From IMG/VR virus record IMGVR_UViG_3300050821_017570, positions 64,001-128,000 of that record: 64,000 nucleotides of DNA, one strand, 5' to 3'. This document shows, in pieces, positions 1 through 59,200 of the stretch. The notes under the pieces were generated by a model that was not told the DNA's origin, made no database searches, and was given only the letters and a program-made list of their open reading frames with translations. The DNA comes from a virus. How positions within the stretch are numbered: the first letter of the stretch is position 1; each line of letters begins with the position of its first letter. The position numbers and the translations under genes are program-made.

Positions 1-171
1 TTGGTATCGGAAAACCATTGGCAACCAACGCCGTCCAGGTTGCTTCCACGAGTAGGGTTGCATCAGAGTATCAAACGCATCGTCATGCGGCGTAATCTTT
101 ATGATCTGAAACGTAACATGCTGGCCGCGCACCAACCAGATCTGCCCATCCCTAAGCGGCGTGAGGGTCAT
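1..171 (-). CDS. GQIW-family small protein #1 (partial, runs off window start)
   Basis: Not in ORF track; manual translation from ATG at 171 gives MTLTPLRDGQIWLVRGQ; the ATG lies inside the Y-D-P codons of the upstream gene. Confidence 0.8.
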   Translation of the reverse strand, partial: MTLTPLRDGQIWLVRGQHVTFQIIKITPHDDAFDTLMQPYSWKQPGRRWLPMVFRYQ

Positions 172-415
172 ACAGACAGACAGACAGACAGACGATCATT
201 GTGAGATTAGCAACCCCTGGGATGACCAACGTACCGTCCTGCTCATGAACAGAGCCCCAGGTCAGCTGCCTGCCACGCTGCACGCGGCTCAGTAGGTCGG
301 TCGTGGTCACGTAGTAATGGGTACTACGGTCTTCCTGTACCTGTATGGCGTCGATTCGTAACCACGTAAATTGTTCGAGCGTCTGCCAGATTTGTCCGAT
401 TCGGATTGGCGTCAC
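152..415 (-). CDS. GQIW-family small protein #2
   Basis: GTG start after GGAG; TPIRIGQIWQ...VCLYDPHAA. Confidence 0.8.
   Translation of the reverse strand: MTPIRIGQIWQTLEQFTWLRIDAIQVQEDRSTHYYVTTTDLLSRVQRGRQLTWGSVHEQDGTLVIPGVANLTMIVCLSVCLYDPHAA
172..193. repeat. (ACAG)5.5 tetranucleotide microsatellite
   Basis: ACAG x5 plus AC at 172-193, inside the C-terminal codons of member #2. Confidence 0.9.
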
Positions 416-651
416 GTGGGCTCCCACAGCAGGTTGGTGAGTACGAAGTTGTCACAATGGTAGTACTCACCCTTCGGCACAAACGTACGTTCAAACGTGG
501 CTTCATCTAACCGAGCGTTGTAGTCGTCACTGTATGTGAAGCTGAGCCAGATGTTGTGCCGGACGTGCTGGCCAATCAGGACACGGGAATCGTGACCCGA
601 CAGGCCAAGCCGGTGGATCAGCCAGCGCTGACCCGTCTGCAGTCGTATCAT
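412..651 (-). CDS. GQIW-family small protein #3
   Basis: MIRLQTGQRW...NLLWEPT. Confidence 0.8.
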   Translation of the reverse strand: MIRLQTGQRWLIHRLGLSGHDSRVLIGQHVRHNIWLSFTYSDDYNARLDEATFERTFVPKGEYYHCDNFVLTNLLWEPT

Positions 652-920
652 GGTGGGCTCCATAGTAGGTAGGTTGGGTCGCCAGGGACGGGGTTGAAAT
701 CATCATGGTGGTACCAACCATAGTGGGCTGGATCACTGTGAAAGCGAATCAGCAGCAACGTTGTGCCTGGCGTACCGTCCTCACGGGGCAACCACGATGA
801 CTCGGCTTCACACCACCAGTGGGTTCCATCATACGATTGGAACCCAACCGTTCGTATGAGTCGGCGGCCACACTGATTCCGGCTCAGCCAGATCTGACCT
901 ACTCGTAATGGTTCGGTCAT
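648..920 (-). CDS. GQIW-family small protein #4
   Basis: MTEPLRVGQIW...YLLWSPP. Confidence 0.8.
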   Translation of the reverse strand: MTEPLRVGQIWLSRNQCGRRLIRTVGFQSYDGTHWWCEAESSWLPREDGTPGTTLLLIRFHSDPAHYGWYHHDDFNPVPGDPTYLLWSPP

Positions 921-1204
921 GTGGGCTCCCACAACAACTGCATGAGGTCCCACGGCTGGACATCGGATTCAGCCCAACGGTGACAGCTAGGGTCGAGGTC
1001 ACTCACGTACCACCAGTTCTGTTGTCCACAGAACCCACGATCCGTCCCACCAGGCGAGCAACGCATCGCCTGGACCGCATACTGGGCACGCTTCCTACCA
1101 TCCATACCTGACGGACGGATGACTCTGAAGACCTGAACCCGTAGGTTGGGGTTTCGACACAGCCAGACCTGGCCCTCACGGATCGACACCAGCTCACCTG
1201 TCAT
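917..1204 (-). CDS. GQIW-family small protein #5
   Basis: MTGELVSIREGQVWLCRN...DLMQLLWEPT. Confidence 0.8.
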   Translation of the reverse strand: MTGELVSIREGQVWLCRNPNLRVQVFRVIRPSGMDGRKRAQYAVQAMRCSPGGTDRGFCGQQNWWYVSDLDPSCHRWAESDVQPWDLMQLLWEPT

Positions 1205-1520
1205 CGCCAGACCCACGGAGCGTGCCGCGTGCGATGCGGCCCTCGATTTTCTGTTGTGAAAGTTCCAAGATGGTAGACATGCTGACTCCATAGTGGGTCG
1301 CTAGACTAGAGATGATGATCATCAGGTCGCCCAGCTCCAACAGCAAGTGGGGCAGGTCGATTGGTGTCCCATCCCTCAGGTGCTTCTTAATCAGTTCGAT
1401 CGCCTCTCCGGCCTCGCCTCCGAGGTTCAGACCCAGGAGCGCCAGATGGGGAAGCCCTTCGGCCTGTGGGTGTGGCTTCGCCGCCATCCAGGCTTGGTAC
1501 GTATCGATGTTAGGGTCCAT
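1194..1520 (-). CDS. mazG: MazG-like nucleotide pyrophosphohydrolase
   Basis: GEAGEAIELIKK and ELGDL acidic metal-binding motifs; C-terminal RGTLRGSGDDR typical of phage MazG. Confidence 0.85.
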   Translation of the reverse strand: MDPNIDTYQAWMAAKPHPQAEGLPHLALLGLNLGGEAGEAIELIKKHLRDGTPIDLPHLLLELGDLMIIISSLATHYGVSMSTILELSQQKIEGRIARGTLRGSGDDR

Positions 1521-1821
1521 GGATGTCCGGATCGTAAATGAGATGAACCAACTGCAGGGGTCGGGTATGCCGTCGGTAGTCAACCAGCCACTGTGGGGTA
1601 AAGAACTGATGGTTGCCGGATAGCCGGAATCCCAGCCCGCTCACCACACAATGCCGGTCACCCAGCGCGCCGCCTTCATAGACCGGCTCGTAATCGTGAC
1701 ACCATCCGTCACACAGGTAGGTTTGATGGTCCGGTACGTAGGTGACCCGCACCAGCTGATAAACAACCTGCTGGTTTCGACACTGCCAGACCTGACGGTC
1801 TTTGAGTTGCTTCGGTATCAT
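1510..1821 (-). CDS. GQIW-family small protein #6
   Basis: MIPKQLKDRQVWQCRNQ...HLIYDPD. Confidence 0.75.
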   Translation of the reverse strand: MIPKQLKDRQVWQCRNQQVVYQLVRVTYVPDHQTYLCDGWCHDYEPVYEGGALGDRHCVVSGLGFRLSGNHQFFTPQWLVDYRRHTRPLQLVHLIYDPDIHGP

Positions 1822-2090
1822 GGTGGCCCCCACAGCAGGATCATCAGGTCGTCCGGTGCAAAACGTTCGGTCTGGTGATAATGCCAGGTCTGATCAGTTG
1901 GATCGAACCGAAAGGCGTGGTGGTGTATGCTACCCCACCCACCCTGCTTACCATTCCAGAAGTTAGCCTGCTGATAACTCACCTCTGCTGTCATGTCCTC
2001 TACGGCGATCACGGGGTCGGTGACGATGAAACAGCGATAGTGCTGGTACCGTAGCTGCCAGATCTGACCCACCCGGAGCGGGACTAGCAT
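1818..2090 (-). CDS. GQIW-family small protein #7
   Basis: MLVPLRVGQIW...DLMILLWGPP. Confidence 0.8.
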   Translation of the reverse strand: MLVPLRVGQIWQLRYQHYRCFIVTDPVIAVEDMTAEVSYQQANFWNGKQGGWGSIHHHAFRFDPTDQTWHYHQTERFAPDDLMILLWGPP

Positions 2091-2347
2091 GGCGGTTCCC
2101 ACAGCAGGATCACCAGGTCTAATGACCGATCCATAGGGCTATAACGGTTCCCTGCTGCCTGCAGCTCACCTTGATAGTAGTCGCCCCGGTCGCTCCATCG
2201 GATCCAACTGGTTCCATAGGTTTGGACCGGATTATGGTCGACCTGCTCGACAAAATAGCCTCCTGACGGCTCAGCAATCTGCTGAAAGTGGTAGCGATAT
2301 CGCTGATTCCGACACATCCAGATTTGTCCTGCTCTCAAAGCTAGCAT
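2084..2347 (-). CDS. GQIW-family small protein #8
   Basis: MLALRAGQIWMCRNQ...DLVILLWEPPC. Confidence 0.8.
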   Translation of the reverse strand: MLALRAGQIWMCRNQRYRYHFQQIAEPSGGYFVEQVDHNPVQTYGTSWIRWSDRGDYYQGELQAAGNRYSPMDRSLDLVILLWEPPC

Positions 2348-2649
2348 GGTGGCTCCCACAGAAGGGTTATGAGGTCATGTTTCAGATCAGGCAGCCCTAT
2401 GAGGCCAAACCAACGGTAGTAGGTCTGGCAATCGGAGACACAGAACGTTACGCCGCTGGTTTCATGACTCAGCGTCCGCTCGTCTAGGATGACGCGAAAA
2501 TGACCGCCCCACACCTGTTCTGACATCTGGTGCTGACGTCGATGATCGGCACCATACTGAGCAGGCCCGTACTGGAGCCGTAGGATTTGATATCGTGCCG
2601 ATTGGTCTCGACACAACCAAATCTGATCTGGTTTCAATGGGGCTAGCAT
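2341..2649 (-). CDS. GQIW-family small protein #9
   Basis: MLAPLKPDQIWLCRDQ...DLITLLWEPPC. Confidence 0.8.
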   Translation of the reverse strand: MLAPLKPDQIWLCRDQSARYQILRLQYGPAQYGADHRRQHQMSEQVWGGHFRVILDERTLSHETSGVTFCVSDCQTYYRWFGLIGLPDLKHDLITLLWEPPC

Positions 2650-2897
2650 GGTGGATCCCAGAGACAGACGATAAGGATTCGGTCAGGATGGAGGGTTGAC
2701 AGCTGGTAGTACCCATCAGGATGTGGGACAAACTCTCGCCACGTCTCTATCTGCTCAGGACGGGGTGGTCGCTCCCGTAGTGGCGCGTACAGATAGCTGC
2801 ACCAGATGGTATGCCGTACATGCTTACCGATATGGATCCGTATGCCCTCGCGGTCACTCATCAGCCAGATCTGACCCTGTCTAAGCGGTGGGGTCAT
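2643..2897 (-). CDS. GQIW-family small protein #10
   Basis: MTPPLRQGQIW...IVCLWDPPC. Confidence 0.8.
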   Translation of the reverse strand: MTPPLRQGQIWLMSDREGIRIHIGKHVRHTIWCSYLYAPLRERPPRPEQIETWREFVPHPDGYYQLSTLHPDRILIVCLWDPPC

Positions 2898-3129
2898 ACA
2901 TCAGCCCCATGAGGTCAAACCCACGATAGGATTGGCCCTTCTGCTCCCAAATCCCTTCGTTCCACCGGACGTTCCAAATGAGATTGCCGGTATAGCCGCC
3001 ACTAAACTGGAGATAGGAAAACCTGATGTTGTAGCCGCTACCATCGGGTCGCACCTCCTCAAGCGTCAAACGATACTGCTGGTTACGGGTCAGCCAGACT
3101 TGGCCGACCTTCAGTTGGATTCGATCCAT
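2881..3129 (-). CDS. GQIW-family small protein #11
   Basis: MDRIQLKVGQVWLTRNQ...DLMGLMYDPTA. Confidence 0.8.
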   Translation of the reverse strand: MDRIQLKVGQVWLTRNQQYRLTLEEVRPDGSGYNIRFSYLQFSGGYTGNLIWNVRWNEGIWEQKGQSYRGFDLMGLMYDPTA

Positions 3130-3132
3130 AGG

Positions 3133-3420
3133 TTAGCCTTTGGGTTCCCACAAGAGAGTTATGAGATCACAGTTACGATAGTCATGAAGCTCGTTTTGAG
3201 CCGCCGTCAGCGCGGCATTATGGTAGCGATAACAGAGTGGCTGACGGATCCAGCAGACTTGGTTAAACGGGCCGAACCTCTCATCAGGCGTGGTCCACCA
3301 GCCGTACCCATCAACCAGGTATCGATCTGGCTGTGGGGCAGCCACCACCCTATGGAGTCGCACGCGCCACCAACCCGATCGGGCCATCCAGATCTGACCC
3401 GGTCTAACCTGGGGGATCAT
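3133..3420 (-). CDS. GQIW-family small protein #12
   Basis: MIPQVRPGQIW...DLITLLWEPKG. Confidence 0.8.
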   Translation of the reverse strand: MIPQVRPGQIWMARSGWWRVRLHRVVAAPQPDRYLVDGYGWWTTPDERFGPFNQVCWIRQPLCYRYHNAALTAAQNELHDYRNCDLITLLWEPKG

Positions 3421-3700
3421 ACCGTAGCCAGACGAGGTCGTCGATATCGGCCCGAAACGCACCATCGGCATTGCAGTAGCAGATCGACTCGCCTCGTGGG
3501 CACCAATAGACACGATCAACCGTACGGTCAACCGTCTGGGTGGCAAAATCCTCACTCAGCCGGATGATTTCGCGCTGCACCCGAACCATCTCTCCGTCTG
3601 ACGTATCGGATTCTACCCACACGCCCAGTACCCGCAGGGTAGCGAGACTCCTCGGGTTCCGAAACTGCCAGATCTGCCCGACCCTAAGTGGATGGCTCAT
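3404..3700 (-). CDS. GQIW-family small protein #13
   Basis: MSHPLRVGQIW...DLVWLRYDPPG. Confidence 0.8.
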   Translation of the reverse strand: MSHPLRVGQIWQFRNPRSLATLRVLGVWVESDTSDGEMVRVQREIIRLSEDFATQTVDRTVDRVYWCPRGESICYCNADGAFRADIDDLVWLRYDPPG

Positions 3701-3932
3701 ACAGGCACGTGACGAGGTCATAGTTTTCTGACATCCGATTGGTTCGGGCCCAACAGTCGGGCTGATCACAGTAGCTGAACTGTTCGCGCGGCCACTGATG
3801 ACCGTCATACATGTCATACGTCGTTACCGTCAGCGTAACGGTCCGATTCGAGTGAGTCGTAATCTCACGGATCAGGAACCGCCGGTTCTGGCCGCGGTTC
3901 ATCCAGATCTGGCCAATCTTAAGTGGGGTCAT
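3684..3932 (-). CDS. GQIW-family small protein #14
   Basis: MTPLKIGQIW...DLVTCLYEPST. Confidence 0.8.
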   Translation of the reverse strand: MTPLKIGQIWMNRGQNRRFLIREITTHSNRTVTLTVTTYDMYDGHQWPREQFSYCDQPDCWARTNRMSENYDLVTCLYEPST

Positions 3933-4191
3933 AGATCAGACTCGTGAGATCGTATTCATCGTTTTGTGACCCCACCCGATCGTAGTGGTAGACCGGCGAA
4001 CCTGATCGTTGGTACAGCGTTATATCAAGATCCATGTCCTCCATTCCCTCACCGAGATCGAGGTGGTCCCAGCGACCCTGAATCCGGTAACGAACACATC
4101 GGGTGAACCGCCGGACCGTGACGCGTTCGATGTGGTAGCGGGCCTGCTGATCCCTACTCAGCCAGACCTGACCCACCCTAAGCGGGCGCAT
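3919..4191 (-). CDS. GQIW-family small protein #15
   Basis: MRPLRVGQVWLSRDQ...DLTSLIYDPT. Confidence 0.8.
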   Translation of the reverse strand: MRPLRVGQVWLSRDQQARYHIERVTVRRFTRCVRYRIQGRWDHLDLGEGMEDMDLDITLYQRSGSPVYHYDRVGSQNDEYDLTSLIYDPT

Positions 4192-4429
4192 ATAGCATCT
4201 GCACGAGGTCTAACGGTGGTGCGTGCAGCCCACGTCCAAGCGCATTGATCCACAATTGCCAGCATCGGGTTGGTTCATCCCACCGGTGGCATCGTTCGGT
4301 TGCGTCGTCATGCAGTATGAGACCGTTATCGTCAACCCACTCGTAGTACCCCTGATCAGGGCCGGTGACGCAGAAGGTATAGCGTTGGCCCCGACACTGC
4401 CAGATTTGTCCAGCTCTTAAAGCTAGCAT
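4178..4429 (-). CDS. GQIW-family small protein #16
   Basis: MLALRAGQIWQCRGQ...DLVQMLYAPA. Confidence 0.8.
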   Translation of the reverse strand: MLALRAGQIWQCRGQRYTFCVTGPDQGYYEWVDDNGLILHDDATERCHRWDEPTRCWQLWINALGRGLHAPPLDLVQMLYAPA

Positions 4430-4722
4430 GGTGGCTCCCACAGCAGGCTGATGAGTCGATACGCCATTGTCAGTTCACATTTTAATGGTCCAATGGGAAA
4501 TCCGTCGCGCGCACCCGGAACGGTGGTCCACCAACCACCCTCATACCAGCAGAACGGCCGTCGAAATTCGGTCTTAATGTGTCGGCTGGTCTCTAGGCTG
4601 CTACCCACGTAACTGTACCAGATCGAGTCGGTGTCATGGGCGCCAATGAAAATCCGATTACGATGGTTCTGGTCCATCGCTCCACTGAGCTGCCACTGCT
4701 GACCCATCCGCAGGGCAATCAT
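4423..4722 (-). CDS. GQIW-family small protein #17
   Basis: MIALRMGQQW...LISLLWEPPC. Confidence 0.8.
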   Translation of the reverse strand: MIALRMGQQWQLSGAMDQNHRNRIFIGAHDTDSIWYSYVGSSLETSRHIKTEFRRPFCWYEGGWWTTVPGARDGFPIGPLKCELTMAYRLISLLWEPPC

Positions 4723-4952
4723 GGTGGATCCCACAGTAGCGTGATGAGCCGATGAGCCTGATCGATTCGCCAGAAGCCGTTTGACTCATAGATACGTCGC
4801 ATGGTCCAGTCCTCAAAAGGAATTCGGTTACGATCCATTCCATACCAGGTCCTCCATACCTGCTCTTTCACATGACAACCGACAAACAGCCGGTTTGGAT
4901 GAAGGTCCAGTACATCGACCAGCCAGATCTGACCTTCTCGTATGGCAATCAT
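4719..4952 (-). CDS. GQIW-family small protein #18
   Basis: MIAIREGQIW...LITLLWDPP. Confidence 0.8.
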   Translation of the reverse strand: MIAIREGQIWLVDVLDLHPNRLFVGCHVKEQVWRTWYGMDRNRIPFEDWTMRRIYESNGFWRIDQAHRLITLLWDPP

Positions 4953-5188
4953 GGTGGGTCCCACAGCAGGTTGATAAGTCGATGACTCAGGTCGAATGCC
5001 CACACGGGGCCAGCCCTACGGATCGTGCGGGTCGTCCAGATTCGGGTATTTGGGTCTGGGTCGATCCCATACCAGGTTCGCCAGTCCTCACCCGTCACGT
5101 GTGCGCCAATAAACAGCCTATTCGGATGGTTGGCCCGAATGGTGGAATCCACCTGCCAGATCTGGCCCGACCGGATAGGACTCAACAC
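4949..5188 (-). CDS. GQIW-family small protein #19
   Basis: GTG start; LSPIRSGQIW...LINLLWDPP. Confidence 0.78.
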   Translation of the reverse strand: MLSPIRSGQIWQVDSTIRANHPNRLFIGAHVTGEDWRTWYGIDPDPNTRIWTTRTIRRAGPVWAFDLSHRLINLLWDPP

Positions 5189-5445
5189 GATCGCTCCCAC
5201 AGTAGGATCATCAGATCGTTAGGGCCAGGCCCGGTGCTGTAGTGGTGGCAACCAAGCTGATCGTCTGGCCACCAATAGATGGTACTCCATCCGTTTGACC
5301 CACTGGATCGGTTCAGATGGGCGTGAAATTGGTGCCAAATACGTGTGCCATCGTCGTGATCACCAATGTAGCGGCCAATGGTGGCTCGATACGCCTGAGC
5401 CCGGCACAGCCAGATCTGACCCTCTCTAAGCGGCGGGAGGATCAT
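5182..5445 (-). CDS. GQIW-family small protein #20
   Basis: MILPPLREGQIWLCRAQ...DLMILLWERSC. Confidence 0.8.
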   Translation of the reverse strand: MILPPLREGQIWLCRAQAYRATIGRYIGDHDDGTRIWHQFHAHLNRSSGSNGWSTIYWWPDDQLGCHHYSTGPGPNDLMILLWERSC

Positions 5446-5704
5446 ACAGGCAAACCGTGAGATCGAACTCGTTGGGGTGACCGGAGCGGTTGCGGCACCA
5501 GGCCTGCCCGACTCCGCTGTATTCCCAATCCGTGCTACCGGCGTCACCGTTATCGTGGATCCGATGGACGGTAAAGCTGACCCTCAGTTGGGGCGGACTA
5601 CCACGCTGATCGGCGATGCTCTTGATGTGAAATCGGTACTGTTGGTAACGGGTCATCCAGATCTGACCGGGCCGAAGCTGTACTGGCGTATCAGTGGGTT
5701 CCAT
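5426..5704 (-). CDS. GQIW-family small protein #21
   Basis: VQLRPGQIWMTRYQ...DLTVCLYDPPAA. Confidence 0.8.
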   Translation of the reverse strand: MEPTDTPVQLRPGQIWMTRYQQYRFHIKSIADQRGSPPQLRVSFTVHRIHDNGDAGSTDWEYSGVGQAWCRNRSGHPNEFDLTVCLYDPPAA

Positions 5705-6257
5705 AGGTGGTTTCCAAACTAGAAAGGAAGGGGCGAAACATCTCAATACTTGCCAAACAGTCATCAAGGCTCCGGTGGGCCGGATTACCCTTCGGGCGCG
5801 GCACACCCGTCACCATCTCCTTGCCGATCTCAAAGCTACTAACGTCGAGTAGACGGTAGCTGAGTTCTGACAAGCAGTTAGGTGTGTGCCAGCGGAGCCA
5901 CCGAACGTCGAAATGTACGCTGCTGCCGGCCAGGTAGGTTTGCTGGCGATCCACACGATGCGAGCGAATCCACTCGATCAGATCGGTATCACTGAAGTAG
6001 TGGCAGTCACAGATACCCTGCTCGTACCGCTGGACGATCTCACCGATCAGACCCGATTGGGTATGCAGGCGGACGCACTGGTGGTCCATCCCCTCGACGC
6101 ATTCATCATACGGCATGCCGGCCAGCCAGTGGAAGCGGCCCAGCTCAGTGAGATGTCGATCCGTAACGATACATCCGACCTCACGGATCTGGCCATCTTC
6201 GGGCTCAAGTCCCGTGGTCTCCAGATCCAGCCATACCAAACGTAACGGGTCAGTCAT
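5691..6257 (-). CDS. orn: Oligoribonuclease (DEDDh 3'-5' exonuclease)
   Basis: LVWLDLETTGL (ExoI), LAGSSVHFD (ExoII), YRLLDVSS, HRSLDD (ExoIII), matching Orn. Confidence 0.88.
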   Translation of the reverse strand: MTDPLRLVWLDLETTGLEPEDGQIREVGCIVTDRHLTELGRFHWLAGMPYDECVEGMDHQCVRLHTQSGLIGEIVQRYEQGICDCHYFSDTDLIEWIRSHRVDRQQTYLAGSSVHFDVRWLRWHTPNCLSELSYRLLDVSSFEIGKEMVTGVPRPKGNPAHRSLDDCLASIEMFRPFLSSLETTYGTH

Positions 6258-6266
6258 AAGTTCTTT

Positions 6267-6548
6267 CTAGTCAGGCTGATAGATCAGCCAGACGAGGTCA
6301 TGCGGGTCAGGTCTCAGATCGCGCCACCAGCTATGGATGGCAGGTATGCCAACATACCAACAGTAATGGTCCGAACGGTGTGCGGGGTCAAACCCAGTGT
6401 GGGTGAACCATACAGTCGAGCCATCGGATTCGAACGGAGGCCGCGGTAGGGCTACGACCTGTGTGATCCGAATCCTCCAGGCCTGTTCCCGACACAGCCA
6501 GACTTGGTTTGCCTTGAGTGGTTCTAACATCTTAACCTGCAGGCTCAT
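6267..6548 (-). CDS. GQIW-family small protein #22
   Basis: MLEPLKANQVWLCREQ...DLVWLIYQPD. Confidence 0.78.
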   Translation of the reverse strand: MSLQVKMLEPLKANQVWLCREQAWRIRITQVVALPRPPFESDGSTVWFTHTGFDPAHRSDHYCWYVGIPAIHSWWRDLRPDPHDLVWLIYQPD

Positions 6549-6801
6549 ATAGCAGAATCATGAGATCCAAATCGGTCGGGTCGTCGTCTCGTTGGCTCAT
6601 ATGACAGGCACGAGTTGGGTTAAACCAATAGGTACAGCGATCGTTTCGGCTGAACCTCCCATCCTGTTCAACCCGATAGCGTATGGGCTGTCGATGCTGG
6701 CCTTCATCACTCACATGTGGGTCACCCAGCTCGGTAATGATAATGCGTTCGGTCTGATCTCTTCGGAGCCAAATTTGTCCGACCCTCAGTTGTTCCAGCA
6801 T
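6532..6801 (-). CDS. GQIW-family small protein #23
   Basis: AAGGA RBS; MLEQLRVGQIW...DLMILLYEPAG. Confidence 0.8.
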   Translation of the reverse strand: MLEQLRVGQIWLRRDQTERIIITELGDPHVSDEGQHRQPIRYRVEQDGRFSRNDRCTYWFNPTRACHMSQRDDDPTDLDLMILLYEPAG

Positions 6802-6865
6802 AGTGTCCTTAAACAGATAAACCCAGGCAGAGCCTGGGTTTATGACAACCAACCATCATATGGGT

Positions 6866-7925: not shown

Positions 7926-8138
7926 TCACAGCCGCTCCGTCCGATCGATCCTCGACTGCAGGACCCGACAGAATCGGCAGATCTGAGAGCGTGGGCGCCC
8001 CGGGTCGGGCAGAAACCAGAGCCTGCATTCCAAGCACTTCTTTTTCAGATCCGTCTGGTCATCCTGGTCCGCATATCGGCACCACGGCTCTTCCAGATCG
8101 GCCAACTCGTCAGACAGATGATCGGCTTCGTCTCCCAT
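7926..8138 (-). CDS. Small Zn-ribbon-like protein
   Basis: CLEC...CRFC pairs. Confidence 0.5.
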   Translation of the reverse strand: MGDEADHLSDELADLEEPWCRYADQDDQTDLKKKCLECRLWFLPDPGRPRSQICRFCRVLQSRIDRTERL

Positions 8139-8563
8139 CAGGTGGTCTCACCACAATGGCGACAGACCCGTGGTTCCACATACACCATATCGGGATCAAG
8201 CGCGTCGCCCAGGACGCTTTCCGAAACCGCATGTTCATGGAGTTCAACACCCGTAGCGGTAAGCAGGCCGGCGTCATTAAGTCGATCCAGGTCCGGAGGT
8301 ATACGAATCATATCAACCGCTTGGACCGCGTAACTGAAGTAATAGCGCCAACTGATACCGCTGGTTGACTTAAAGGGCTCAACCCGGTTCAGATGGGCCT
8401 CCCCAGTCTCACACATCTGGTCCAAGATGGCTTCCAAGTCATCCGGTTGGATCGGCTCTTCTGAATCCAGCACAAGCCGCCACACCAGATAGGTGTCGAC
8501 TTCAACCGGTGATGGTTCCGCTACGGGCTTGGCCGGAGCTGATTTTGCTTTCTTGTGCGTCAT
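8138..8563 (-). CDS. Hypothetical protein
   Basis: 141-aa ORF, C-terminal CRHC. Confidence 0.6.
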   Translation of the reverse strand: MTHKKAKSAPAKPVAEPSPVEVDTYLVWRLVLDSEEPIQPDDLEAILDQMCETGEAHLNRVEPFKSTSGISWRYYFSYAVQAVDMIRIPPDLDRLNDAGLLTATGVELHEHAVSESVLGDALDPDMVYVEPRVCRHCGETT

Positions 8564-8566
8564 ACC

Positions 8567-9106: not shown

Positions 9107-9175
9107 ATTCGTGGGCCCTTCGGACCAGCTCAGCGTCGCGCTGCAGCTGGTGGGGATCGTGGGTCAGACGGCCCA

Positions 9176-9814: not shown

Positions 9815-9839
9815 GGTTTGATTCCTTTATTCGTGTTGG

Positions 9840-11170: not shown

Positions 11171-11181
11171 TCGGCCCCTCC

Positions 11182-13258: not shown

Positions 13259-13632
13259 GGTTTGCTCTGTCGGGGATCATGCCGTGCGTGAGGGCGTCGG
13301 GCCCGCTCCTTGAGCCGACGATCGAGTTCTGAGGAGTCAAAGCTTCCCTCAGGCAGATCGCCAAGCGCCATAAGCCGCTTGCGCAACAGCACCAGAACAT
13401 CCTGGGTTGAGAAGCCACGGAATGGGCTATCACAACCAGGAGCGTCCACCACATCCATAATCATGCTGTTGACCAGCTGAATCGCCTGCTCTTTGGCCAG
13501 ATGTTCCATCTCGGTCAGCTTGGGGCGCGCCGCCTCCATAATGACCCGAACGGCTATCGAACGCTCCTCCGGTGTCGGCTTATCCATGGCTCGCTGAAGC
13601 TCGTGTGTGAGGTCGTTGAAGAAATCATGCAT
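13255..13632 (-). CDS. Hypothetical protein
   Basis: ORF from MHDFFNDL. Confidence 0.55.
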   Translation of the reverse strand: MHDFFNDLTHELQRAMDKPTPEERSIAVRVIMEAARPKLTEMEHLAKEQAIQLVNSMIMDVVDAPGCDSPFRGFSTQDVLVLLRKRLMALGDLPEGSFDSSELDRRLKERARRPHARHDPRQSKP

Positions 13633-14116
13633 TGTCGTCATCCTCAGGTTCATCGTAGTCTTCATCCTCATCTTCATCTTCGTCTTGATCCTCATCACCA
13701 TCCGGATGGGGTGTGGCCGGTATGCCGCGGAACCACTCTTCATTACCCAGCTCGGGTTCCCAAATCAGCCGCACGAGTGAGAATGCTATCTCGTAGGTAC
13801 CACGAGCCTCCTCAGATCCGGTTGGGAAAAGGTAATAGGGTACCGATATCCGGGTATTGGGTGGCAGACAGCCAGTTAGCCAGTGGTACTCATCACCCTG
13901 ATAACCTATCCTGAAACCGCCGATATGACTGGTGGCCATTTCGGTTCCGTCGGGAGCCGAACTAAGCAACCAACCGAATACTCGGTCTTCATAGTCATCG
14001 CGATCCGGACTAATTATGACAGCCGTATACCGCTGGTCGAAGCATTGCCAGATCTGACCTTTCGATAGCAGTGGTAACGCTTCGTTTACCGGCTTTACAG
14101 CCCGTGTTCTCGTCAT
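13625..14116 (-). CDS. GQIW-family protein #24, extended, with acidic tail
   Basis: LSKGQIWQCFDQ...SLVRLIWEPE, then a D/E-rich tail. Confidence 0.7.
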   Translation of the reverse strand: MTRTRAVKPVNEALPLLSKGQIWQCFDQRYTAVIISPDRDDYEDRVFGWLLSSAPDGTEMATSHIGGFRIGYQGDEYHWLTGCLPPNTRISVPYYLFPTGSEEARGTYEIAFSLVRLIWEPELGNEEWFRGIPATPHPDGDEDQDEDEDEDEDYDEPEDDDNA

Positions 14117-20295: not shown

Positions 20296-20751
20296 TTAAC
20301 CTTCAGCCGCGGCGGCCATGTTCTCGACCGACGTGGGGATAAAAATGGTACGACGACGAGCCATCAGGCCAGCCATGCGATCACCAGATGCGGTAGGACT
20401 CACATGGTTGGCAAACCACGCGGGAGTGGTTTCGGCAAGGCAACCGATCAGGTCGATATTCTCACGGACCTGACGGCCAGCGCGGCGATAGCATCCTGAG
20501 GTATTCCGGTAGGTATCCCGGTAGGTATAGCTAATCGTACTACCATAGTGGTCACGATTGTAGGGTCTACCGTCGTAATTCCAGGCGAATTCAGCATCGT
20601 AGACGTAGGCCAACAGGGCTATGGGGTCCCCACGCCGCTGGGTCACTTCGGTAATGATGGCCCTAGTGTCCTGCCCACGACATAACCAGATCTGACCAAC
20701 CTTTGGAGTCGGAAGTTCGACTTTTTCACTGCTAGTTCGACGACGAGCCAT
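20296..20751 (-). CDS. GQIW-family protein #25, extended
   Basis: PKVGQIWLCRGQ...NIDLIGCL. Confidence 0.7.
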   Translation of the reverse strand: MARRRTSSEKVELPTPKVGQIWLCRGQDTRAIITEVTQRRGDPIALLAYVYDAEFAWNYDGRPYNRDHYGSTISYTYRDTYRNTSGCYRRAGRQVRENIDLIGCLAETTPAWFANHVSPTASGDRMAGLMARRRTIFIPTSVENMAAAAEG

Positions 20752-31948: not shown

Positions 31949-32673
31949 TCGGTCCTCGTTACGGCGCAGTCGAAGCAATGGTTGGTAAGTCCGTTGGGGC
32001 ACTCAGCCTTCGGGTCTTCGACATCGTAGCGAGTACGTAACCGAATCAACTGCAGGTTGTGCTTTCGAAACGAGGGGGTCAAACCCCACTGGTCGAACTG
32101 TACTTCATCGGAATCCGGCACCGGTCTTAGAAAGCCCCATAGCCGTAGACCGATGAAGTGTCTCGCATCCCCATCAAACTGCAGGCGTCGGGACCATCCG
32201 ACCTGATAGGCCAGGTAGCTGAGAAAGCCTTCTGGAAACTTCCGGCGGATCAGGTGGCCCGCCGGATGCCCGGTGAAGCACCTGAGCCCAAACTCCACTC
32301 CAGCAAATCGTTCTCGCCACAACGCTTCTCTCGTCGTACGTACCTCCATGGCGACCCATTCGTCACGCACGGGGCGATCGTAAGCAATCAAAGGGCCGTT
32401 AGCTAAGTCGGATTCACGACCACCAATCTGGGCAGCCAGCGTTTCGGCCAACTGCCTGGTGAGCGGCTGGCCCACGTACTGAAGCATCGTCTGGGTGCAG
32501 GTATGGTTGTCCTGAAACCCTAGCAGCTCGGCCAGTAGGCCTCCAACGTGGATCGCCATCTCAGGCGTGATCGGACAATCGATTCGCTGACGCAGCAACG
32601 TAAACGCTGTGTCGGTCTGTAGGAGTATGTCGTCAAACCGAATACGTGGTATCGGCGGTAGATCGTTATCCAC
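31894..32673 (-). CDS. Hypothetical protein with C-terminal Cys cluster
   Basis: GTG start after GGAG; CP...HCFDC...C. Confidence 0.6.
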   Translation of the reverse strand: MDNDLPPIPRIRFDDILLQTDTAFTLLRQRIDCPITPEMAIHVGGLLAELLGFQDNHTCTQTMLQYVGQPLTRQLAETLAAQIGGRESDLANGPLIAYDRPVRDEWVAMEVRTTREALWRERFAGVEFGLRCFTGHPAGHLIRRKFPEGFLSYLAYQVGWSRRLQFDGDARHFIGLRLWGFLRPVPDSDEVQFDQWGLTPSFRKHNLQLIRLRTRYDVEDPKAECPNGLTNHCFDCAVTRTECQASLVFPTSPTHLIRS

Positions 32674-32944
32674 GATGCGCTCCGTCCAGCAGTCGCACCA
32701 AATCCCACGGATATGGTTGGGTGCGGTCTCGACAGTAATAGGCCGAATCCAAAAGCTCCGGTACCTTATACCAACCACGTATCCAAGATGAATCATACCA
32801 GCGATTGGCGTCTCGCACTCCGCCTCGCGTGGTCGCCTGAATACGGATACACCCATCGAGTCGCAACAAATCTGTCACCAGCCCACGAGACCCATTCCGA
32901 TATTCCCAAGTCTGACCAACCTTGATGGGTGGCATCAGGCTCAT
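32666..32944 (-). CDS. GQIW-family protein #26
   Basis: PIKVGQTWEYRNG...PWDLVRLLD. Confidence 0.7.
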   Translation of the reverse strand: MSLMPPIKVGQTWEYRNGSRGLVTDLLRLDGCIRIQATTRGGVRDANRWYDSSWIRGWYKVPELLDSAYYCRDRTQPYPWDLVRLLDGAHRG

Positions 32945-49043: not shown

Positions 49044-49066
49044 TTGTATCCTTTGAAACGACCAAG

Positions 49067-51325
49067 TCACGCCTCACCGACGTGAATCACATGGTCAAGA
49101 AAACCTTTGAGTGACGCATCATGTGTGACAATCAGAATCTGTCTGCCCTTGGCTTGCGAAATCTCGCGTAACCTCAGGAGCAGGTTCTGAAGATGGACGA
49201 TGTTTGCCTCGTCCAGATAAGCCGACGGTTCATCAAGAACCAGCAGGCCCATGTTCCGGGCAAACGTATCGGCCATCGCTAGCCTGAACGCAACCGACGC
49301 AATGATCTTCTCACCTCCGGATAGGCGAGATGCGTCTACCTGAACACCCTTCTTCTCTCCACTGATGAAGAGAATACGGAACGCCATATCGGCGTCTAAC
49401 CACATTCGAAACGGAGATTCGAGAAGTAGCAAATACTGCTCGATATGGTTGTTGAGAATCGCAGAGTATTCACGCATCGCCAGGGCTGGATACCCAGATA
49501 CATGCATAGCCTCTCTGACCTGTCGAACGACTGCGACCCACGCGTTATCGTCAGCCTCACGCTGAGACTGCTCAAGTAGGCGTCGCGCCTCACCTTCACG
49601 CTGTGTCGCTAGCCCGCTGGCGACACCAACTTTCAACGTCAGTTCCTGTAATGCGCGGCTGAGACCAGGATAAGCTTCCATCTGGCGCTTAGCCTCGGTC
49701 ACTTCCTCCATAGTTGGAATGTTGTCAATCTGACCTAGCTGATCGAGATACTCCTTTGCCTTACAAGCCGTCGCAGCCGCCTGGGTGATCCGCGTGACCA
49801 ACCCAGCGTAGCGCTCATTCGCTACCGCGACAGCCGTTTGAAGCGTTTGGAACTCCGTGACGATCGCTCGTAACTGAGTCATCAGGACGCTATCCGCCGG
49901 CTCGGTAGGCAGGCCTCGCATCTGACTGGTAATCGATTCGACATCACGACTCAGCAACTGGTGGGCGCGAGCCAGCTCGGTCAGTCGGGTCAACTCGGCC
50001 GTCTGGAGTCGCAGGTTCGTCTTGAGAACGTCGGCTTCACCTTTCAGCAACTTGCTCGTAATCTGATCGATCTGATTCAACTGGCCCTGTACGGTAGCAC
50101 GCTGCTCTTGCAGGACTGCTAATTCGGACTTCTTCCGCTGAACCATCTCTGGCCCGCCATGAACGGTCTGACCACACGTCGGACAGACCCCACTTCCAAG
50201 GTGCTGACACTCACTCGACAGTTGGCGCTGGCTATCCGATAGCCGTGCCAGCTCAACCTCCAGGGCTTCCTGACCTGGCATCTTCGGCCGCGCGGCTGGC
50301 GTCTTAACCATCCATTCGAGTGACTCCAACCGAGCGGTGTCGGCCTTGATCTGATCCGCTAGCGCGGTTTGATCTGCCTGGGAAAATGGTGCCAGCTGGG
50401 TCTTCTGAAGCTCAGCAAGCCGCTGACTCAGCTCAACCCATCGTTCCCATTGTGTGTGAGCCTTCTCCAGCGATTTGATCTGTTCGACCGCACTAATCGC
50501 AAGAGCCTGGCTAGCGTCACGCTGTGCTTGTTTGGCCACCAACGCTTGGTGGGCCTCATCTGCTTCCAGCCGAGCAGCCTCACACTCTTGCGTCATCCGC
50601 TCGTACTGCTGGGTCGCCTGGGCAACCGCAGCCGTATGTCGGATCGCTTCACTGGCCCGCTGAAGCGTCTGCTGGTGAACCGCCAGTCCCTCTAACGCGA
50701 CTTGCGTCCGTTGAAGGTCGGCTTCTGCCGCTACCAGTTCGGCTCTCGCCTTGGTGGTTGCAGCAACCGCCTCGGCCAGAATGTCTGTCAGGTTAGGCGT
50801 GACCTGGTAGAGATTCTGCTCAACCGTCAGGAGTCGATAGACCTGCTCGGTTCGATCGAGCCCAAAGCTAGCCTGGAACTCCTTGAGCCGGCTGGTTGGG
50901 CTGGCACACAAGATGGCCTCAATCTTGGTCTGCTGGATGAAAACATTGTCCAACAGGAGATCGATCGGAGCGCCAAACATGTCCTGGATAAACAGATCCA
51001 GTTCACCGGCCTTGTTGATACGGGTGCCTGGTCCGGTCAGAATCGACTTGGCCGGCAGATCACGATAGATGTGCCGGACGATCTGATACTCGGTACCGGC
51101 TTGATCGAACAGACCTCTGACCTCTGCGTCGGCCTGACCGTCGCGGATGTTGTCCTTGTTGTTGCCGCTGTTGACGCTTCGACCCGTGAACAACAGTCGG
51201 ATGGCGTCGCAAAGATTCGACTTGCCACTTCCGTTGGCACCCACGATACCGTTCAGGCCAGGTCGAAACTCGACCTCCAGACTTCGATGTTGGCAATAGT
51301 TCGTAAGCAGGAGTGATTTTAGCAC
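49067..51325 (-). CDS. sbcC: SbcC/Rad50/gp46-like SMC ATPase
   Basis: GANGSGKS, long coiled coils, Zn hook CPTCGQ, LSGGE signature, LVLDEP, IVTH. Confidence 0.92.
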   Translation of the reverse strand: MLKSLLLTNYCQHRSLEVEFRPGLNGIVGANGSGKSNLCDAIRLLFTGRSVNSGNNKDNIRDGQADAEVRGLFDQAGTEYQIVRHIYRDLPAKSILTGPGTRINKAGELDLFIQDMFGAPIDLLLDNVFIQQTKIEAILCASPTSRLKEFQASFGLDRTEQVYRLLTVEQNLYQVTPNLTDILAEAVAATTKARAELVAAEADLQRTQVALEGLAVHQQTLQRASEAIRHTAAVAQATQQYERMTQECEAARLEADEAHQALVAKQAQRDASQALAISAVEQIKSLEKAHTQWERWVELSQRLAELQKTQLAPFSQADQTALADQIKADTARLESLEWMVKTPAARPKMPGQEALEVELARLSDSQRQLSSECQHLGSGVCPTCGQTVHGGPEMVQRKKSELAVLQEQRATVQGQLNQIDQITSKLLKGEADVLKTNLRLQTAELTRLTELARAHQLLSRDVESITSQMRGLPTEPADSVLMTQLRAIVTEFQTLQTAVAVANERYAGLVTRITQAAATACKAKEYLDQLGQIDNIPTMEEVTEAKRQMEAYPGLSRALQELTLKVGVASGLATQREGEARRLLEQSQREADDNAWVAVVRQVREAMHVSGYPALAMREYSAILNNHIEQYLLLLESPFRMWLDADMAFRILFISGEKKGVQVDASRLSGGEKIIASVAFRLAMADTFARNMGLLVLDEPSAYLDEANIVHLQNLLLRLREISQAKGRQILIVTHDASLKGFLDHVIHVGEA

Positions 51326-51588
51326 GGTGCCTCATACAGAAGTGTAATGAAATCACGTTCTGGCAGGCTTGGATGACGCCAGAGCCCATCCTTCCACGTG
51401 CGATGACAACCACCACTACCGGTTCGTTGCCAGACCGAATTAGAATACGTGACTGATTCCGTCATAGCCTCACACCTCGCGATATAAACGATACCATCAA
51501 CACGGGCTACAACCGAATCGCTCAGAATGGTTATACGTAGGTTCTGGTTCCTACACTGCCAGATTTGACCTCGTTTGCGCGTAATCAT
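51319..51588 (-). CDS. GQIW-family small protein #27
   Basis: RKRGQIWQCRNQ...DFITLLYEAPC. Confidence 0.78.
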   Translation of the reverse strand: MITRKRGQIWQCRNQNLRITILSDSVVARVDGIVYIARCEAMTESVTYSNSVWQRTGSGGCHRTWKDGLWRHPSLPERDFITLLYEAPC

Positions 51589-52019
51589 GATGTGGTTTCC
51601 GGATCATACAACAGAAGTGTGAAATCACGATCCGCATCATGAGGGTGTCGCCATTGGCCATACACAAATTCTCTCGTCGCATGACCGGTAAACGAGAACA
51701 CCGATCCATCGGCACCCGACCGGTACACCTCTACCTGAAAGCTTAGCATATCAACAACTTGATCACCGCGGATATCTACATCTTCGTCATCAAGATGAAG
51801 CAACTTCATCGACACCCGCTGGTCCCGACACTGCCAGACCTGACCGACTCGTAAGCGGCGAGCATCTGGGGCGGCTTCGCGATAAAGGGCCGATAGCTGT
51901 CGGACACGAGGCGAGCAAACAAATCGGCATGCATACCAGACCGCGTACAGACATCGCTTGATAAACCTCACCAGTCGTATGACGGTGGGAAAATCTTCAG
52001 GCCACATACGGTGTCTCAT
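51585..52019 (-). CDS. GQIW-family protein #28 with N-terminal extension
   Basis: RLRVGQVWQCRDQ...DFTLLLYDPE. Confidence 0.75.
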   Translation of the reverse strand: MRHRMWPEDFPTVIRLVRFIKRCLYAVWYACRFVCSPRVRQLSALYREAAPDARRLRVGQVWQCRDQRVSMKLLHLDDEDVDIRGDQVVDMLSFQVEVYRSGADGSVFSFTGHATREFVYGQWRHPHDADRDFTLLLYDPETTS

Positions 52020-54343: not shown

Positions 54344-55149
54344 TATTTAGGGGCAACACGTCTGTCATTTAAATGACAATAACGTTTGAAATTCATACAT
54401 GACCGAATGGCTTCACCATAATTGGAAGACTCAACCCCACTACCAGGATAGTCACTTAGTGAGACAAAGTAGTCCCACGCTGCACCGCGGTATGGGAACG
54501 ATTGAGTCTCCAAGCCACCAAGATCACGTCTCGTAGACCTTTCATAGATACGATCTGTTTTGATCCCAATGGGGACATCAGATGTCCAGAGACCGACTAG
54601 ATACAGGTAAAACGTCTCGATCCGAACTTCGCTTCTATGGTCCCAGTGGACAACCGTTTCGGTTTCACAGTACCGAAGGCATGGTAGGTATCCAACCAGT
54701 TGATAGGCCGTATGGTTGGCCCGGAACCGAGTCATGATCGCCGGATGTAGTGGCTCAGAAGATACCAATTCGGGATCTGTAACCCGTACGTGCCAGTAGG
54801 GGGCCTCGATCTGGTCGACGAGTGTTCCGAGTCGGTTCTGGTGGACACACCAGCAGCTCGGACAGAACGCATTCCCGCATACGTTGGTTGGACAGATGAT
54901 TGGCTCATCGGATTCGTTGTTTGCCTTCATGAGCCCAACCAACGGCTTGGCAATCGCTCCGATACCACGACACAACCGGCCGCTCGCTCGGTTGTACCGA
55001 TACTGGTCGAGGGTTAGCTTGCCAAACAACCCTGGTGTGATTGCATCCTGGCTGGATTGGATACGCTCCCAAACCTGATATCGGTCGTCGAATTCGGTAG
55101 TCTCGCGGCTAGTCATCACTTTGGTTGGCCATTTGGGAGATTCAGTCAT
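54343..55149 (-). CDS. Zn-finger protein with Rep/IS91-like N-terminal motifs
   Basis: CGNAFCPSC...PYWHVRVTDPEL; stop codon abuts the inverted repeat; no intact HUH motif seen. Confidence 0.35.
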   Translation of the reverse strand: MTESPKWPTKVMTSRETTEFDDRYQVWERIQSSQDAITPGLFGKLTLDQYRYNRASGRLCRGIGAIAKPLVGLMKANNESDEPIICPTNVCGNAFCPSCWCVHQNRLGTLVDQIEAPYWHVRVTDPELVSSEPLHPAIMTRFRANHTAYQLVGYLPCLRYCETETVVHWDHRSEVRIETFYLYLVGLWTSDVPIGIKTDRIYERSTRRDLGGLETQSFPYRGAAWDYFVSLSDYPGSGVESSNYGEAIRSCMNFKRYCHLNDRRVAPK

Positions 55150-55460
55150 GACGCCTCATACAGACAAACCACGAGATCACCCGACATGTCGTTACGCTGA
55201 TGATAAGCCACTCCATTATGATCGACATGCGCGTAGTAGGTTTGATCGCGCGATTCGATCCAGCGTAGCTCGTTAGAGTGAACCGACCAGGCCAGCTGAC
55301 CGTTATGCCACAGTTCCTCACTACCCGAGCACACCCAGTGTGGATTGGGTCCATCCGAACGGGCCACCGTCTGGAGAGTGAACATGCGCTGGTAGTCCGG
55401 TGCACAATCGATCTTGCCGGCCTGCCAGACCTGCCCCGGCCTAAGTGGTTGGAGGGTCAT
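55146..55460 (-). CDS. GQIW-family small protein #29
   Basis: PLRPGQVW...DLVVCLYEAS. Confidence 0.78.
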   Translation of the reverse strand: MTLQPLRPGQVWQAGKIDCAPDYQRMFTLQTVARSDGPNPHWVCSGSEELWHNGQLAWSVHSNELRWIESRDQTYYAHVDHNGVAYHQRNDMSGDLVVCLYEAS

Positions 55461-55695
55461 AGATGAGTGTCGTTAGTGCGTAAGGATCGATACCGTGGGT
55501 GGCCCGAGACCACACTCCGCTGACCCACCGTACGTCACCGGTCCACTTGTGTGTATCACGATCTACGCTCGTACACCACTGGTAGGACAGATCGGTCTGG
55601 TAACTGAGTTCGGTCCGTTTGGCAAACCTCACAACTGTCCATCGAACGTTTTGATCATAACCCAACCAGATCTGGCCAATCTTAAGCGGGGTCAT
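55441..55695 (-). CDS. GQIW-family small protein #30
   Basis: MTPLKIGQIW...LTTLIYDPPTT. Confidence 0.8.
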   Translation of the reverse strand: MTPLKIGQIWLGYDQNVRWTVVRFAKRTELSYQTDLSYQWCTSVDRDTHKWTGDVRWVSGVWSRATHGIDPYALTTLIYDPPTT

Positions 55696-55933
55696 AAATG
55701 AGCGTCGCTAGCGCGTAAGGATCCACACCATTACCACGGGCCCAAACCCCATTGATAAAGCGTATCGAACCGCTCCATCCGTATGACCCGTCACTTGTGC
55801 CTCTTGTCGATTGGTAGGACAGATCGACCTGATAATGCAGTTCGGTTCGCTTGGTTAGTTTGACAACCGTCCATCGGATGTCATGCGTGCCAGCCAACCA
55901 GATTTGACCGACTCGGATCGGCGTGGGGGTCAT
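55682..55933 (-). CDS. GQIW-family small protein #31
   Basis: PIRVGQIW...LATLIYDPA. Confidence 0.8.
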   Translation of the reverse strand: MTPTPIRVGQIWLAGTHDIRWTVVKLTKRTELHYQVDLSYQSTRGTSDGSYGWSGSIRFINGVWARGNGVDPYALATLIYDPA

Positions 55934-58930: not shown

Positions 58931-59200
58931 TCATTCGGGGCTCCATAGCAGGAACATGATTTGTTCGCCATTATTGGTCTGAAGACTGCAGCAACCATCG
59001 GCTAGCTCTCGAATCAACCGGACTGGCCAACCTGGGTTACGACCGGGACTAACATAGTGTTGGTACCAATCCGTAGAACCATACCACCAACCTGAATATG
59101 CGTGCTGGGTATCACCCCGTATGACTACGAGCCGTGTATTAATACCGCTCGTTAGCTTTCTCTGTTCGAACCATATTTGACCGATCTTGAGGCTAGTCAT
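58931..59200 (-). CDS. GQIW-family small protein #32
   Basis: MTSLKIGQIW...MFLLWSPE. Confidence 0.75.
   Translation of the reverse strand: MTSLKIGQIWFEQRKLTSGINTRLVVIRGDTQHAYSGWWYGSTDWYQHYVSPGRNPGWPVRLIRELADGCCSLQTNNGEQIMFLLWSPE

Follow-up and report, generated by a model that had tools for sequence, protein, structure and literature searches.

Why should a single phage maintain dozens of diverged versions of one small gene, set head-to-tail on the same strand? The question is raised by a stretch of 64,000 nucleotides (nt), here called the window, which covers positions 64001-128000 of the IMG/VR virus record IMGVR_UViG_3300050821_017570. The record has a length of 187,139 bp at an estimated completeness of about 95% and represents an uncultured tailed phage with a genome of 187 kb. 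The window opens with an array of genes for previously undescribed proteins of approximately 85 residues that are predicted to be beta-barrels. An original prediction, made from the letters of the window, had taken this array for a scaffold library with fixed ends and hypervariable cores, which could be expanding as a gene accordion.

Extent and members of the array

Window positions 1-6852 contain 23 consecutive minus-strand open reading frames (ORFs) of 77 to 103 amino acids (aa; lengths that assume the start codon closest to the motif), the first of which is partial at the window start. As originally described, the row is broken solely by a MazG-like and an RNase_T/Orn-like gene (matches to PF03819 and PF00929, respectively) and extends past the window start, where a hidden Markov model (HMM) of the family traces it upstream to genome position 57,505; several unrelated ORFs, including one for a Metallophos phosphoesterase, are interspersed in that part. 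The HMM, built from the members as the original prediction had proposed, picked out 42 genes across the record at E<0.01, every one on the minus strand and 31 of them in the window. Against the six-frame ORFs of the genome, the 23 members of the window array each gave E-values between 1e-7 and 2.5e-22.

The main array comprises 30 members within 13.4 kb (genome positions 57,505-70,855). Outside it members occur in ones to threes, with one each at 77.6, 84.3 and 96.7 kb of the genome, two at 115.3-116.0 kb, three at 119.1-119.9 kb, one at 122.9 kb, two at 128.0-128.7 kb and one at 180.8 kb. A second, broader HMM, which included homologs from outside, recovered the same 42 genes and one doubtful multi-domain ORF at 136.9 kb. 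This 261-aa ORF (genome positions 136904-137689, minus strand, outside the window) gave two weak matches to the family profile (E 0.024) and may be a degenerate multi-domain relative.

The family has a footprint of 12.2 kb (6.5% of the genome), and the frames are intact in all 42 members. The GC content at the first, second and third codon positions is 0.58/0.46/0.58, compared with 0.60/0.42/0.62 in known genes of the phage, a similarity seen in the annotated frame only. The array of paralogous small genes is confirmed as real, far beyond chance, and what is found is a virus multigene family, with many tandem paralogs of one fold in one genome (42, of which 30 lie in 13.4 kb). The features in the window are as follows (window coordinates; E-values are from the family HMM unless a Pfam accession is given).

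1..171, minus strand: member g63887, partial in the window (E 2.3e-18); the full gene lies at genome 63887-64171 and encodes 94 aa
172..193, minus strand: perfect (CTGT)5.5 microsatellite, ACAG on the plus strand, in the 3' end of member 152-415 and directly upstream of the ATG of g63887
152..415, minus strand: member, 87 aa (E 7.2e-12); microsatellite-encoded CLSVCL replaces D-L-x-x-L-L
412..651, minus strand: member, 79 aa, of a divergent 'IGxHV..IW' subgroup (E 2.5e-11; modelled, see below)
648..920, minus strand: member, 90 aa (E 3.4e-18)
917..1204, minus strand: member, 95 aa (E 8.5e-19)
1194..1583, minus strand: MazG-like NTP pyrophosphohydrolase gene, interrupting the array (PF03819, E 3.9e-5)
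1510..1821, minus strand: member, 103 aa (E 5.2e-16)
1818..2090, minus strand: member, 90 aa (E 1.4e-21; modelled, see below)
2084..2347, minus strand: member, 87 aa (E 2e-18)
2341..2649, minus strand: member, 102 aa (family HMM), with a recognisable ortholog on metagenome contig L006 (44% identity)
2643..2897, minus strand: member, 84 aa (E 4.7e-17)
2881..3129, minus strand: member, 82 aa (E 3.2e-18)
3133..3420, minus strand: member, 95 aa (E 2.6e-13)
3404..3700, minus strand: member, 98 aa (E 5.5e-14)
3684..3932, minus strand: member, 82 aa (E 2.7e-20)
3919..4191, minus strand: member, 90 aa (E 4e-19)
4178..4429, minus strand: member, 83 aa; its start region shares a junction repeat with the start of 2084-2347
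4423..4722, minus strand: member, 99 aa (E 9.3e-16)
4719..4952, minus strand: member, 77 aa, recent duplicate of 4949-5188 (56% identity)
4949..5188, minus strand: member, 79 aa (family HMM)
5182..5445, minus strand: member, 87 aa (E 2.3e-20)
5426..5704, minus strand: member, 92 aa (E 2.5e-22)
5691..6257, minus strand: RNase_T/oligoribonuclease-like exonuclease gene, interrupting the array (PF00929, E 3.6e-11)
6267..6530, minus strand: member, 87 aa (E 1.6e-16)
6532..6801, minus strand: member, 89 aa, first of the main array in reading direction (E 1.9e-16)
13625..14116, minus strand: dispersed member, 163 aa, with a poly-acidic tail (E 2.9e-7)
20296..20751, minus strand: dispersed member, 151 aa, just downstream of the ribonucleotide reductase (RNR) gene (E 1.8e-11)
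32666..32944, minus strand: dispersed member, 92 aa, the weakest in the window (E 0.0071)
51319..52019, minus strand: overlapping pair of members, 144 and 89 aa, directly upstream of an sbcC-like gene (E 1.3e-14 and 1.3e-11)
55146..55933, minus strand: three overlapping members, 83, 84 and 104 aa, two of them 52% identical (family HMM)
58931..59200, minus strand: dispersed member, 89 aa (E 3.4e-8)

Two of these features stand apart. A one-unit slip in the microsatellite at 172-193 would frameshift the tail of member 152-415 and alter the junction, so that the tract is a possible slippage hotspot. The C-terminal D/E run of member 13625-14116 gives this protein a net charge of about -25 and a pI of 4.1, unlike every other member, and may be a DNA-mimic-like appendage.

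Predicted fold, conserved positions and gene junctions

The strict terminal motifs that had been ascribed to nearly all members are found in 12 of 23 (N-terminal) and 7 of 23 (C-terminal) window-array members, but looser forms are near-universal: Q-x-W lies close to the N-terminus in all 23, and a [LIVMC][LIVMCR][WY]xP tail is present in 22. A profile alignment of 80 members from this phage and other phages, on which all conservation figures given here are based, places the strongest conservation at the N-terminus (G8 95%, Q9 100%, W11 100%, R14 77%, Q16 80%, R19 63%, and I/V22) and at the C-terminus (D81 71%, L82 83%, L85 88%, L86 82%, Y/W87 98%, D/E88 76%, P89 90%). The middles are not as unalignable as had been supposed, with V37 (55%), W52 (90%) and an aromatic residue at position 69 (Y/W, 90%) conserved there, and an alignment of paralogs alone was sufficient for a confident structural model. 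Four aromatic positions (W11, W52, Y/W69 and Y/W87) are thus conserved at 90-100%; readers of the Tudor or 'royal family' type grip a methylated or cationic ligand with a cage of 3-5 aromatics. The stretches between the anchors (23-36, 38-51, 53-68 and 70-80) have near-zero information and many indels; these variable segments are enriched in W, Y, R, H and D.

Compared with the phage proteome, the family is rich in W (4.8%, 3.3x), Y (1.8x), C (1.8x), R (1.6x) and H (1.5x), whereas K and A are halved, a composition which may be called binder-like. The net charge is near zero and the median pI 6.6, with 20 acidic and 10 basic members, values that speak against a family made up uniformly of nucleic-acid binders or DNA mimics.

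AlphaFold2, given an alignment of the 28 paralogs alone, modelled the member at window positions 1821-2090 as an all-beta protein of seven strands with a predicted local distance difference test score (pLDDT) of 92.2 and a predicted template modelling score (pTM) of 0.81; in the model G-Q-I-W opens strand 1 and L-x-x-L-L-W forms strand 7. A representative of the most divergent subgroup (window positions 415-651) was likewise modelled with seven strands (pLDDT 89.4, pTM 0.77). The common fold that had been expected is thus supported by two divergent members, which share the seven-strand all-beta fold in the models and have overlapping lists of structural neighbours. The idea that the conserved ends are barrel strands enclosing variable segments also held in the models: the ends form the first and last strands (pLDDT 91-96), and between the anchors both sequence and length are variable. 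Each gene is accordingly predicted to encode one all-beta domain of about 85 residues, putatively of the SH3/Tudor/KOW small-barrel class. The nearest structural classes are Tudor, KOW, LSm and UBE2O SH3-like, and the nearest known barrels are Tudor (PcrA/UvrD C-terminal domain), KOW (EF-P domain I, Spt5/NusG), LSm/Sm, BAH and SH3b. Neither Foldseek (against PDB and BFVD) nor searches of the ESM Atlas by shape and by features produced a match that rose above noise; the nearest named clusters, Imm45 and DUF6354, had chance-level scores (0.83). Prediction of a complex between the adjacent members at 2087-2347 and 1821-2090 gave a score of 0.00, which is no answer and counts neither way.

The expectation that this is not an already annotated domain was borne out. 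Pfam searches with sets of 10, 10 and 80 proteins yielded no meaningful match, and specifically no KOW (PF00467) match by hmmscan for 10 members at E<=1 or for 80 members at E<=0.05, PHROGs v4 gave one marginal match, of unknown function (E 0.004), for 10 members, and neither PADLOC 2.0 (28 members) nor a sequence profile search of PDB gave a meaningful match. The array proteins are a new, previously uncatalogued sequence family on a putative SH3/Tudor-like small barrel. A MazF/PemK toxin (PF02452) was considered and rejected, as no Pfam toxin model matched at E<=1; compared with MazF/PemK/Kid of the CcdB/MazF SH3-like barrel, whose full-length barrel has approximately 110 aa and catalytic Arg/Thr, the array family is shorter and does not have the G-x-E...R-P-x-[VI]-[VI]-S segment, and the structural rank of MazF is no better than that of dozens of unrelated barrels. 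A cell-wall-binding SH3b role, considered on account of a weak PlyPy lysin match, was also rejected, since no signal peptide was seen by eye (no predictor was used) and the genes lie amid replication and nucleotide-metabolism genes.

Consecutive genes are arranged head-to-tail with overlaps of 4, 7, 14, 17 or 20 nt. Alignment of all start regions defined two classes of junction. Class A has the form CTGCTGTGGGAGCCACC-ATG(-CTAG), the upstream gene ending in L-L-W-E-P-P-C-stop or W-E-P-T-stop; the W-E codons (TGGGAG) of one gene double as a GGGAG Shine-Dalgarno sequence, placed 6 nt ahead of the ATG that follows. Class B has the form ...CTG-TAT-GAx-CCx..., in which the ATG of the following gene lies inside the Y-D/E codons (TATGA) and the upstream stop codon (TAG/TAA) is embedded in the conserved Leu-Arg/Lys codons of that following gene (CTTAGG or CTTAAG). 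Because the ends are dual-coding at these junctions, part of what had been described as fixed ends is nucleotide-level constraint, whereas the overlaps do not reach G-Q-x-W, W52, Y/W69 and D-L-x-x-L-L, which are therefore conserved as protein. Promoter-like and terminator-like sites in the array showed no excess over shuffled sequence, which is consistent with long polycistronic, translationally coupled expression.

The junctions are the sole DNA repeats in the region (35-77 nt, spaced approximately 230-300 nt). The 77-nt repeat is shared at 84% identity by the starts of 4178-4429 and 2084-2347, and at one pair of junctions the DNA is 85% identical across 60 nt, against 33% for the two proteins (family mean 46%, standard deviation 7.5), which hints at occasional exchange at junctions. 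A diversity-generating retroelement was rejected as a source of the variation, as there is no RVT_1 match in the 187-kb record and the only DNA repeats are the gene junctions.

Relatives and genomic surroundings

The paralogs have a mean pairwise identity of 24% (adjacent members 27%, maximum 56%). Only two adjacent pairs exceed 50% (52-56%) and are apparently recent duplicates, and 14 of the 42 members are closer to a protein of another phage than to any paralog in their own genome. The paralogs are old, to judge by the mean identity, and the array is therefore no recent accordion; the suggestion of a gene accordion in the poxvirus sense finds no support in these three observations. The poxvirus genomic accordion (K3L) resembles the array in having tandem copies of a small viral gene and repeats that permit unequal recombination. 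Accordions such as the K3L amplification consist of recent, near-identical copies that vary within populations; in the array, by contrast, neighbours average 27% and reach at most 56%, and many lineages are older than the separation from related phages.

When 1.84 billion representative proteins were searched with the profile, 105 matched at E<=1e-3, of which 32 were the phage's own and 73 metagenomic. Two-domain fusions were found among the matches (P0015, P0018, P0019, P0039 and P0104). On the contigs fetched for these matches the homologs are again in overlapping tandem arrays, with 3-4 members on L006, L008 and L009 (1-2 kb) and seven or more family ORFs, including a two-domain one, on L029 (7 kb). 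A further contig, L010 (1 kb), is 100% identical in DNA to the source phage.

The comparison with related phages that had been proposed bears out differences in the size and position of the array and slow turnover, not recent expansion. Contig L027 (20.7 kb) is colinear with genome positions 93.7-77.3 kb, with RuvB-like and RNR segments that are 50-71% identical (54-71% aa identity over the matched segments of RNR). Between conserved genes it has a five-gene array where the source phage has zero members, and after the RNR gene it has three family genes (four domains) where the source phage has one. On L009, a flanking gene is 74% identical and at least four members stand against the three syntenic ones at window positions 55146-55933; one L009 member has its nearest counterpart (48%) in the main array. 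Upstream of an SbcC homolog, L007 contains three genes of the family, including a two-domain one, compared with two single-domain genes (51319-52019) in the source phage. Recognisable orthologs are 38-48% identical, against 74% for the flanking gene of L009. Copy number and position thus differ between the source genome and the related viruses represented by L027, L029, L009 and L007, and the family is old and diversified, with slow gain, loss and relocation.

The two-domain fusions of L007 (2465-3019), L027 (10001-10633) and L029 (approximately 6016-6669) form a subgroup that adjoins SbcC or RNR genes; the tail of their first domain is D-L-x-E-C-I-like and their second domain has a long acidic insertion. 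The distant matches P0086, P0098 and P0095 repeat a shortened form of the domain in frame, from three to at least eight times, and are located on unrelated phage-like contigs of 39% and 63% GC. L030, a phage-like metagenome contig of 327 kb and 39% GC, encodes (8001-10811) a 936-aa protein with at least eight in-frame 'K-[IV]-x-V-G-Q-x-W' repeats after a zinc-ribbon-like N-terminus, and P0098 on L031 (63% GC) has three repeats, which indicates that the barrel also occurs as intragenic repeats in unrelated phages.

Among 50,697 GenBank phages no match was found by blastn with the array or by tblastn with a member and the repeat protein P0095. Relatives were also not found with TerL and P0065 in IMG/VR or with P0065 in 185,579 species genomes, and a word-indexed protein search returned the phage's own proteins only. 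The class-A junction, searched as a degenerate DNA pattern, gave 0 matches in IMG/VR and 15 in metagenomes of the Joint Genome Institute (JGI); the latter were at chance level and came with no family ORF. TerL and PolA are approximately 24% identical at full length to those of cultured phages of many hosts, and TerL is up to 31% identical over half its length to that of Vibrio phages; judged by these proteins, the phage is remote from cultured phages. The record contains four tRNAs (Asn, Gly, Gln and Met); psbA was not found in it, and a search of Rfam found no family.

The window consists of a long run of non-structural genes on the minus strand, including those for RNR, a family-A DNA polymerase, DnaB-like and SF2 helicases, a UvsX-like recombinase, SbcC, an RNA ligase with RlaP, an HD_4 protein and Metallophos phosphoesterases. 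The genes interleaved in the array (MazG, Orn-like exonuclease and phosphoesterase) encode enzymes of nucleotide and oligonucleotide turnover, neighbours which may be a mild pointer to host takeover or counter-defence. At window positions 10433-13258 a cluster of RlaP (PF10127), RNA ligase (phrog_968) and an HD_4 domain protein is suggestive of RNA repair or alarmone turnover, which would fit counter-measures against anticodon nucleases or (p)ppGpp signalling. Just downstream of sbcC lies a ThiF-family E1-like gene (45561-46274; PF00899, E 1e-20), adjoined by a gene for a 222-aa protein (44867-45535) with repeated (triple) ThiS/ubiquitin-like matches. The two upstream ORFs (46288-47349 and 47346-49070) had no Pfam match at E<=0.001.

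Possible roles of the repertoire

What, then, might 42 such barrels do? The tentative preference, held at a little under an even chance, is for a repertoire of binders that act inside the cell, are coupled in translation and differ in their targets, in the service of host takeover or counter-defence. The array would be read as one long translationally coupled polycistron, and coupled translation would provide roughly equal amounts of many different small barrels in the infected cell, each of which would bind a different macromolecule with its own variable loops. The junction repeats of 35-77 nt would permit in-register unequal recombination, which would explain why array lengths and sites differ in related phages.

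In poxviruses, African swine fever virus (ASFV), herpesviruses and giant viruses, genes for interaction with the host characteristically form large tandem families of diverged paralogs. In the multigene families of eukaryotic viruses, as in bacterial polyimmunity loci, each paralog neutralises a different host or competitor factor. To our knowledge, neither families at this scale nor this junction design have been described in bacteriophages, and a literature search found no equivalent phage multigene family. The eukaryotic virus families (MGF110/360/505 of ASFV, Bcl-2-like and ankyrin of poxviruses, US22/SUKH of herpesviruses) likewise consist of many divergent copies of a single small fold, set in tandem and gained or lost by lineage, and the proposed repertoire would act in the manner of these or of polyimmunity loci (Zhang et al., PMC3113570, PMC3482391). 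The array differs from such families in being that of a bacteriophage, in its fold, in its single 85-aa domains and in its dual-coding overlaps.

Several points weigh against a coupled repertoire of binders. The start-region alignment leaves class-B junctions with no recognisable Shine-Dalgarno sequence, and overlaps between phage genes are common through compaction alone, so that the coupling is one we infer. The dual-coding constraint on the ends is in agreement with the distribution of the full [WY][DE]P tail, which 19 of the 24 members with an overlapping family gene after them possess, as against 5 of the 18 others (Fisher p 0.0015), but this contrast is confounded by the solitary members also being the most diverged overall. 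Finally, the conservation of polar residues (Q9, R14, Q16, R19 and D81) exceeds the needs of a pure scaffold, and this surplus hints at a shared site.

A shared site is the core of the main rival, which is considered unlikely: a family of adaptors or readers in which a conserved face (Q9, W11, R14, Q16, R19, D81 and Y/W87) would hold one partner, candidates being a nucleotide or nucleic-acid end, an RNA polymerase or ribosome hub, or a phage machine. The variable loops would then supply a second specificity, each paralog bridging the shared partner to a different target. This would be in line with the invariant Gln and the highly conserved Arg, Gln and Asp beside the four conserved aromatics, with the nearest structural classes of the models (Tudor, KOW, LSm and UBE2O SH3-like), which are typically docking or reader modules, and with the 3 to at least 8 domain copies in the distant relatives P0086, P0098 and P0095, as in multivalent readers. 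General nucleic-acid binding is argued against by the mixed charge of the family.

Lesser alternatives concern the virion, a joint assembly and neutral growth. Internal proteins of the T4 type combine a fixed terminal targeting sequence with variable bodies, are encoded at a plastic locus and act against host restriction. The array proteins likewise pair conserved ends with variable bodies, and the barrels would on this account be packaged and injected with the DNA, the ends serving as packaging signals. This is improbable, as the ends are modelled as integral strands of the fold rather than detachable signals, the arrays lie amid replication and nucleotide-metabolism genes rather than structural genes, and a prohead-protease cleavage motif was not recognised. 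That the coupled paralogs co-assemble through their conserved edge strands into a Sm-ring-like structure, filament or lattice is quite improbable: 42 distinct subunits are implausible for one structure, a fixed assembly would not tolerate the differences in copy number and membership among related phages, and dispersed single copies are present.

Largely neutral, junction-driven proliferation would require that the self-similar overlapping junctions ease duplication, that copies persist with little individual function and that the ends are conserved chiefly because the following gene needs those nucleotides (Shine-Dalgarno sequence, ATG, embedded stop). The significantly better preservation of the [WY][DE]P tail where a family gene follows would agree with it, as would the junction repeats being the only DNA-level repeats in the array. 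It is nevertheless very improbable, since all 42 frames are open in spite of approximately 24% identity, G-Q-x-W, W52 and Y/W69 are 90-100% conserved outside the overlaps, other phages included, 14 of the 42 paralog lineages are common to other phages, the fold predictions are confident, and 12 kb of ballast is unlikely in a phage of 187 kb.

The most novel proposal, and a very improbable one, is that the barrels are interchangeable substrate receptors for a ubiquitin-like conjugation machinery of the phage itself, the conserved face docking on that machinery and the variable face selecting the host protein to be tagged, with the array serving also as a binder library reshuffled at the dual-coding junction repeats; the ThiF-type E1 and triple ThiS-like ubiquitin-like genes (44867-46274) lie 2-6 kb from two family members. 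If true, the array would be a phage analogue of the F-box, BTB or UBE2O-SH3 families of substrate adaptors.

Whichever role is preferred, a single phage maintains 42 intact versions of a previously uncatalogued barrel of approximately 85 residues. At the junctions one sequence ends a protein, gives its downstream neighbour a ribosome-binding site or ATG and conceals a stop codon in the conserved Leu-Arg/Lys codons of that neighbour, an architecture which bears on translational coupling, on the dual-coding constraint of protein termini and on in-register recombination. If the barrels are binders, as in the preferred reading of a coupled repertoire, they would constitute a natural scaffold library that is small, cysteine-poor, confidently folded (as predicted) and loop-diversified, from which many new inhibitors of bacterial machinery or defence systems would be obtainable.

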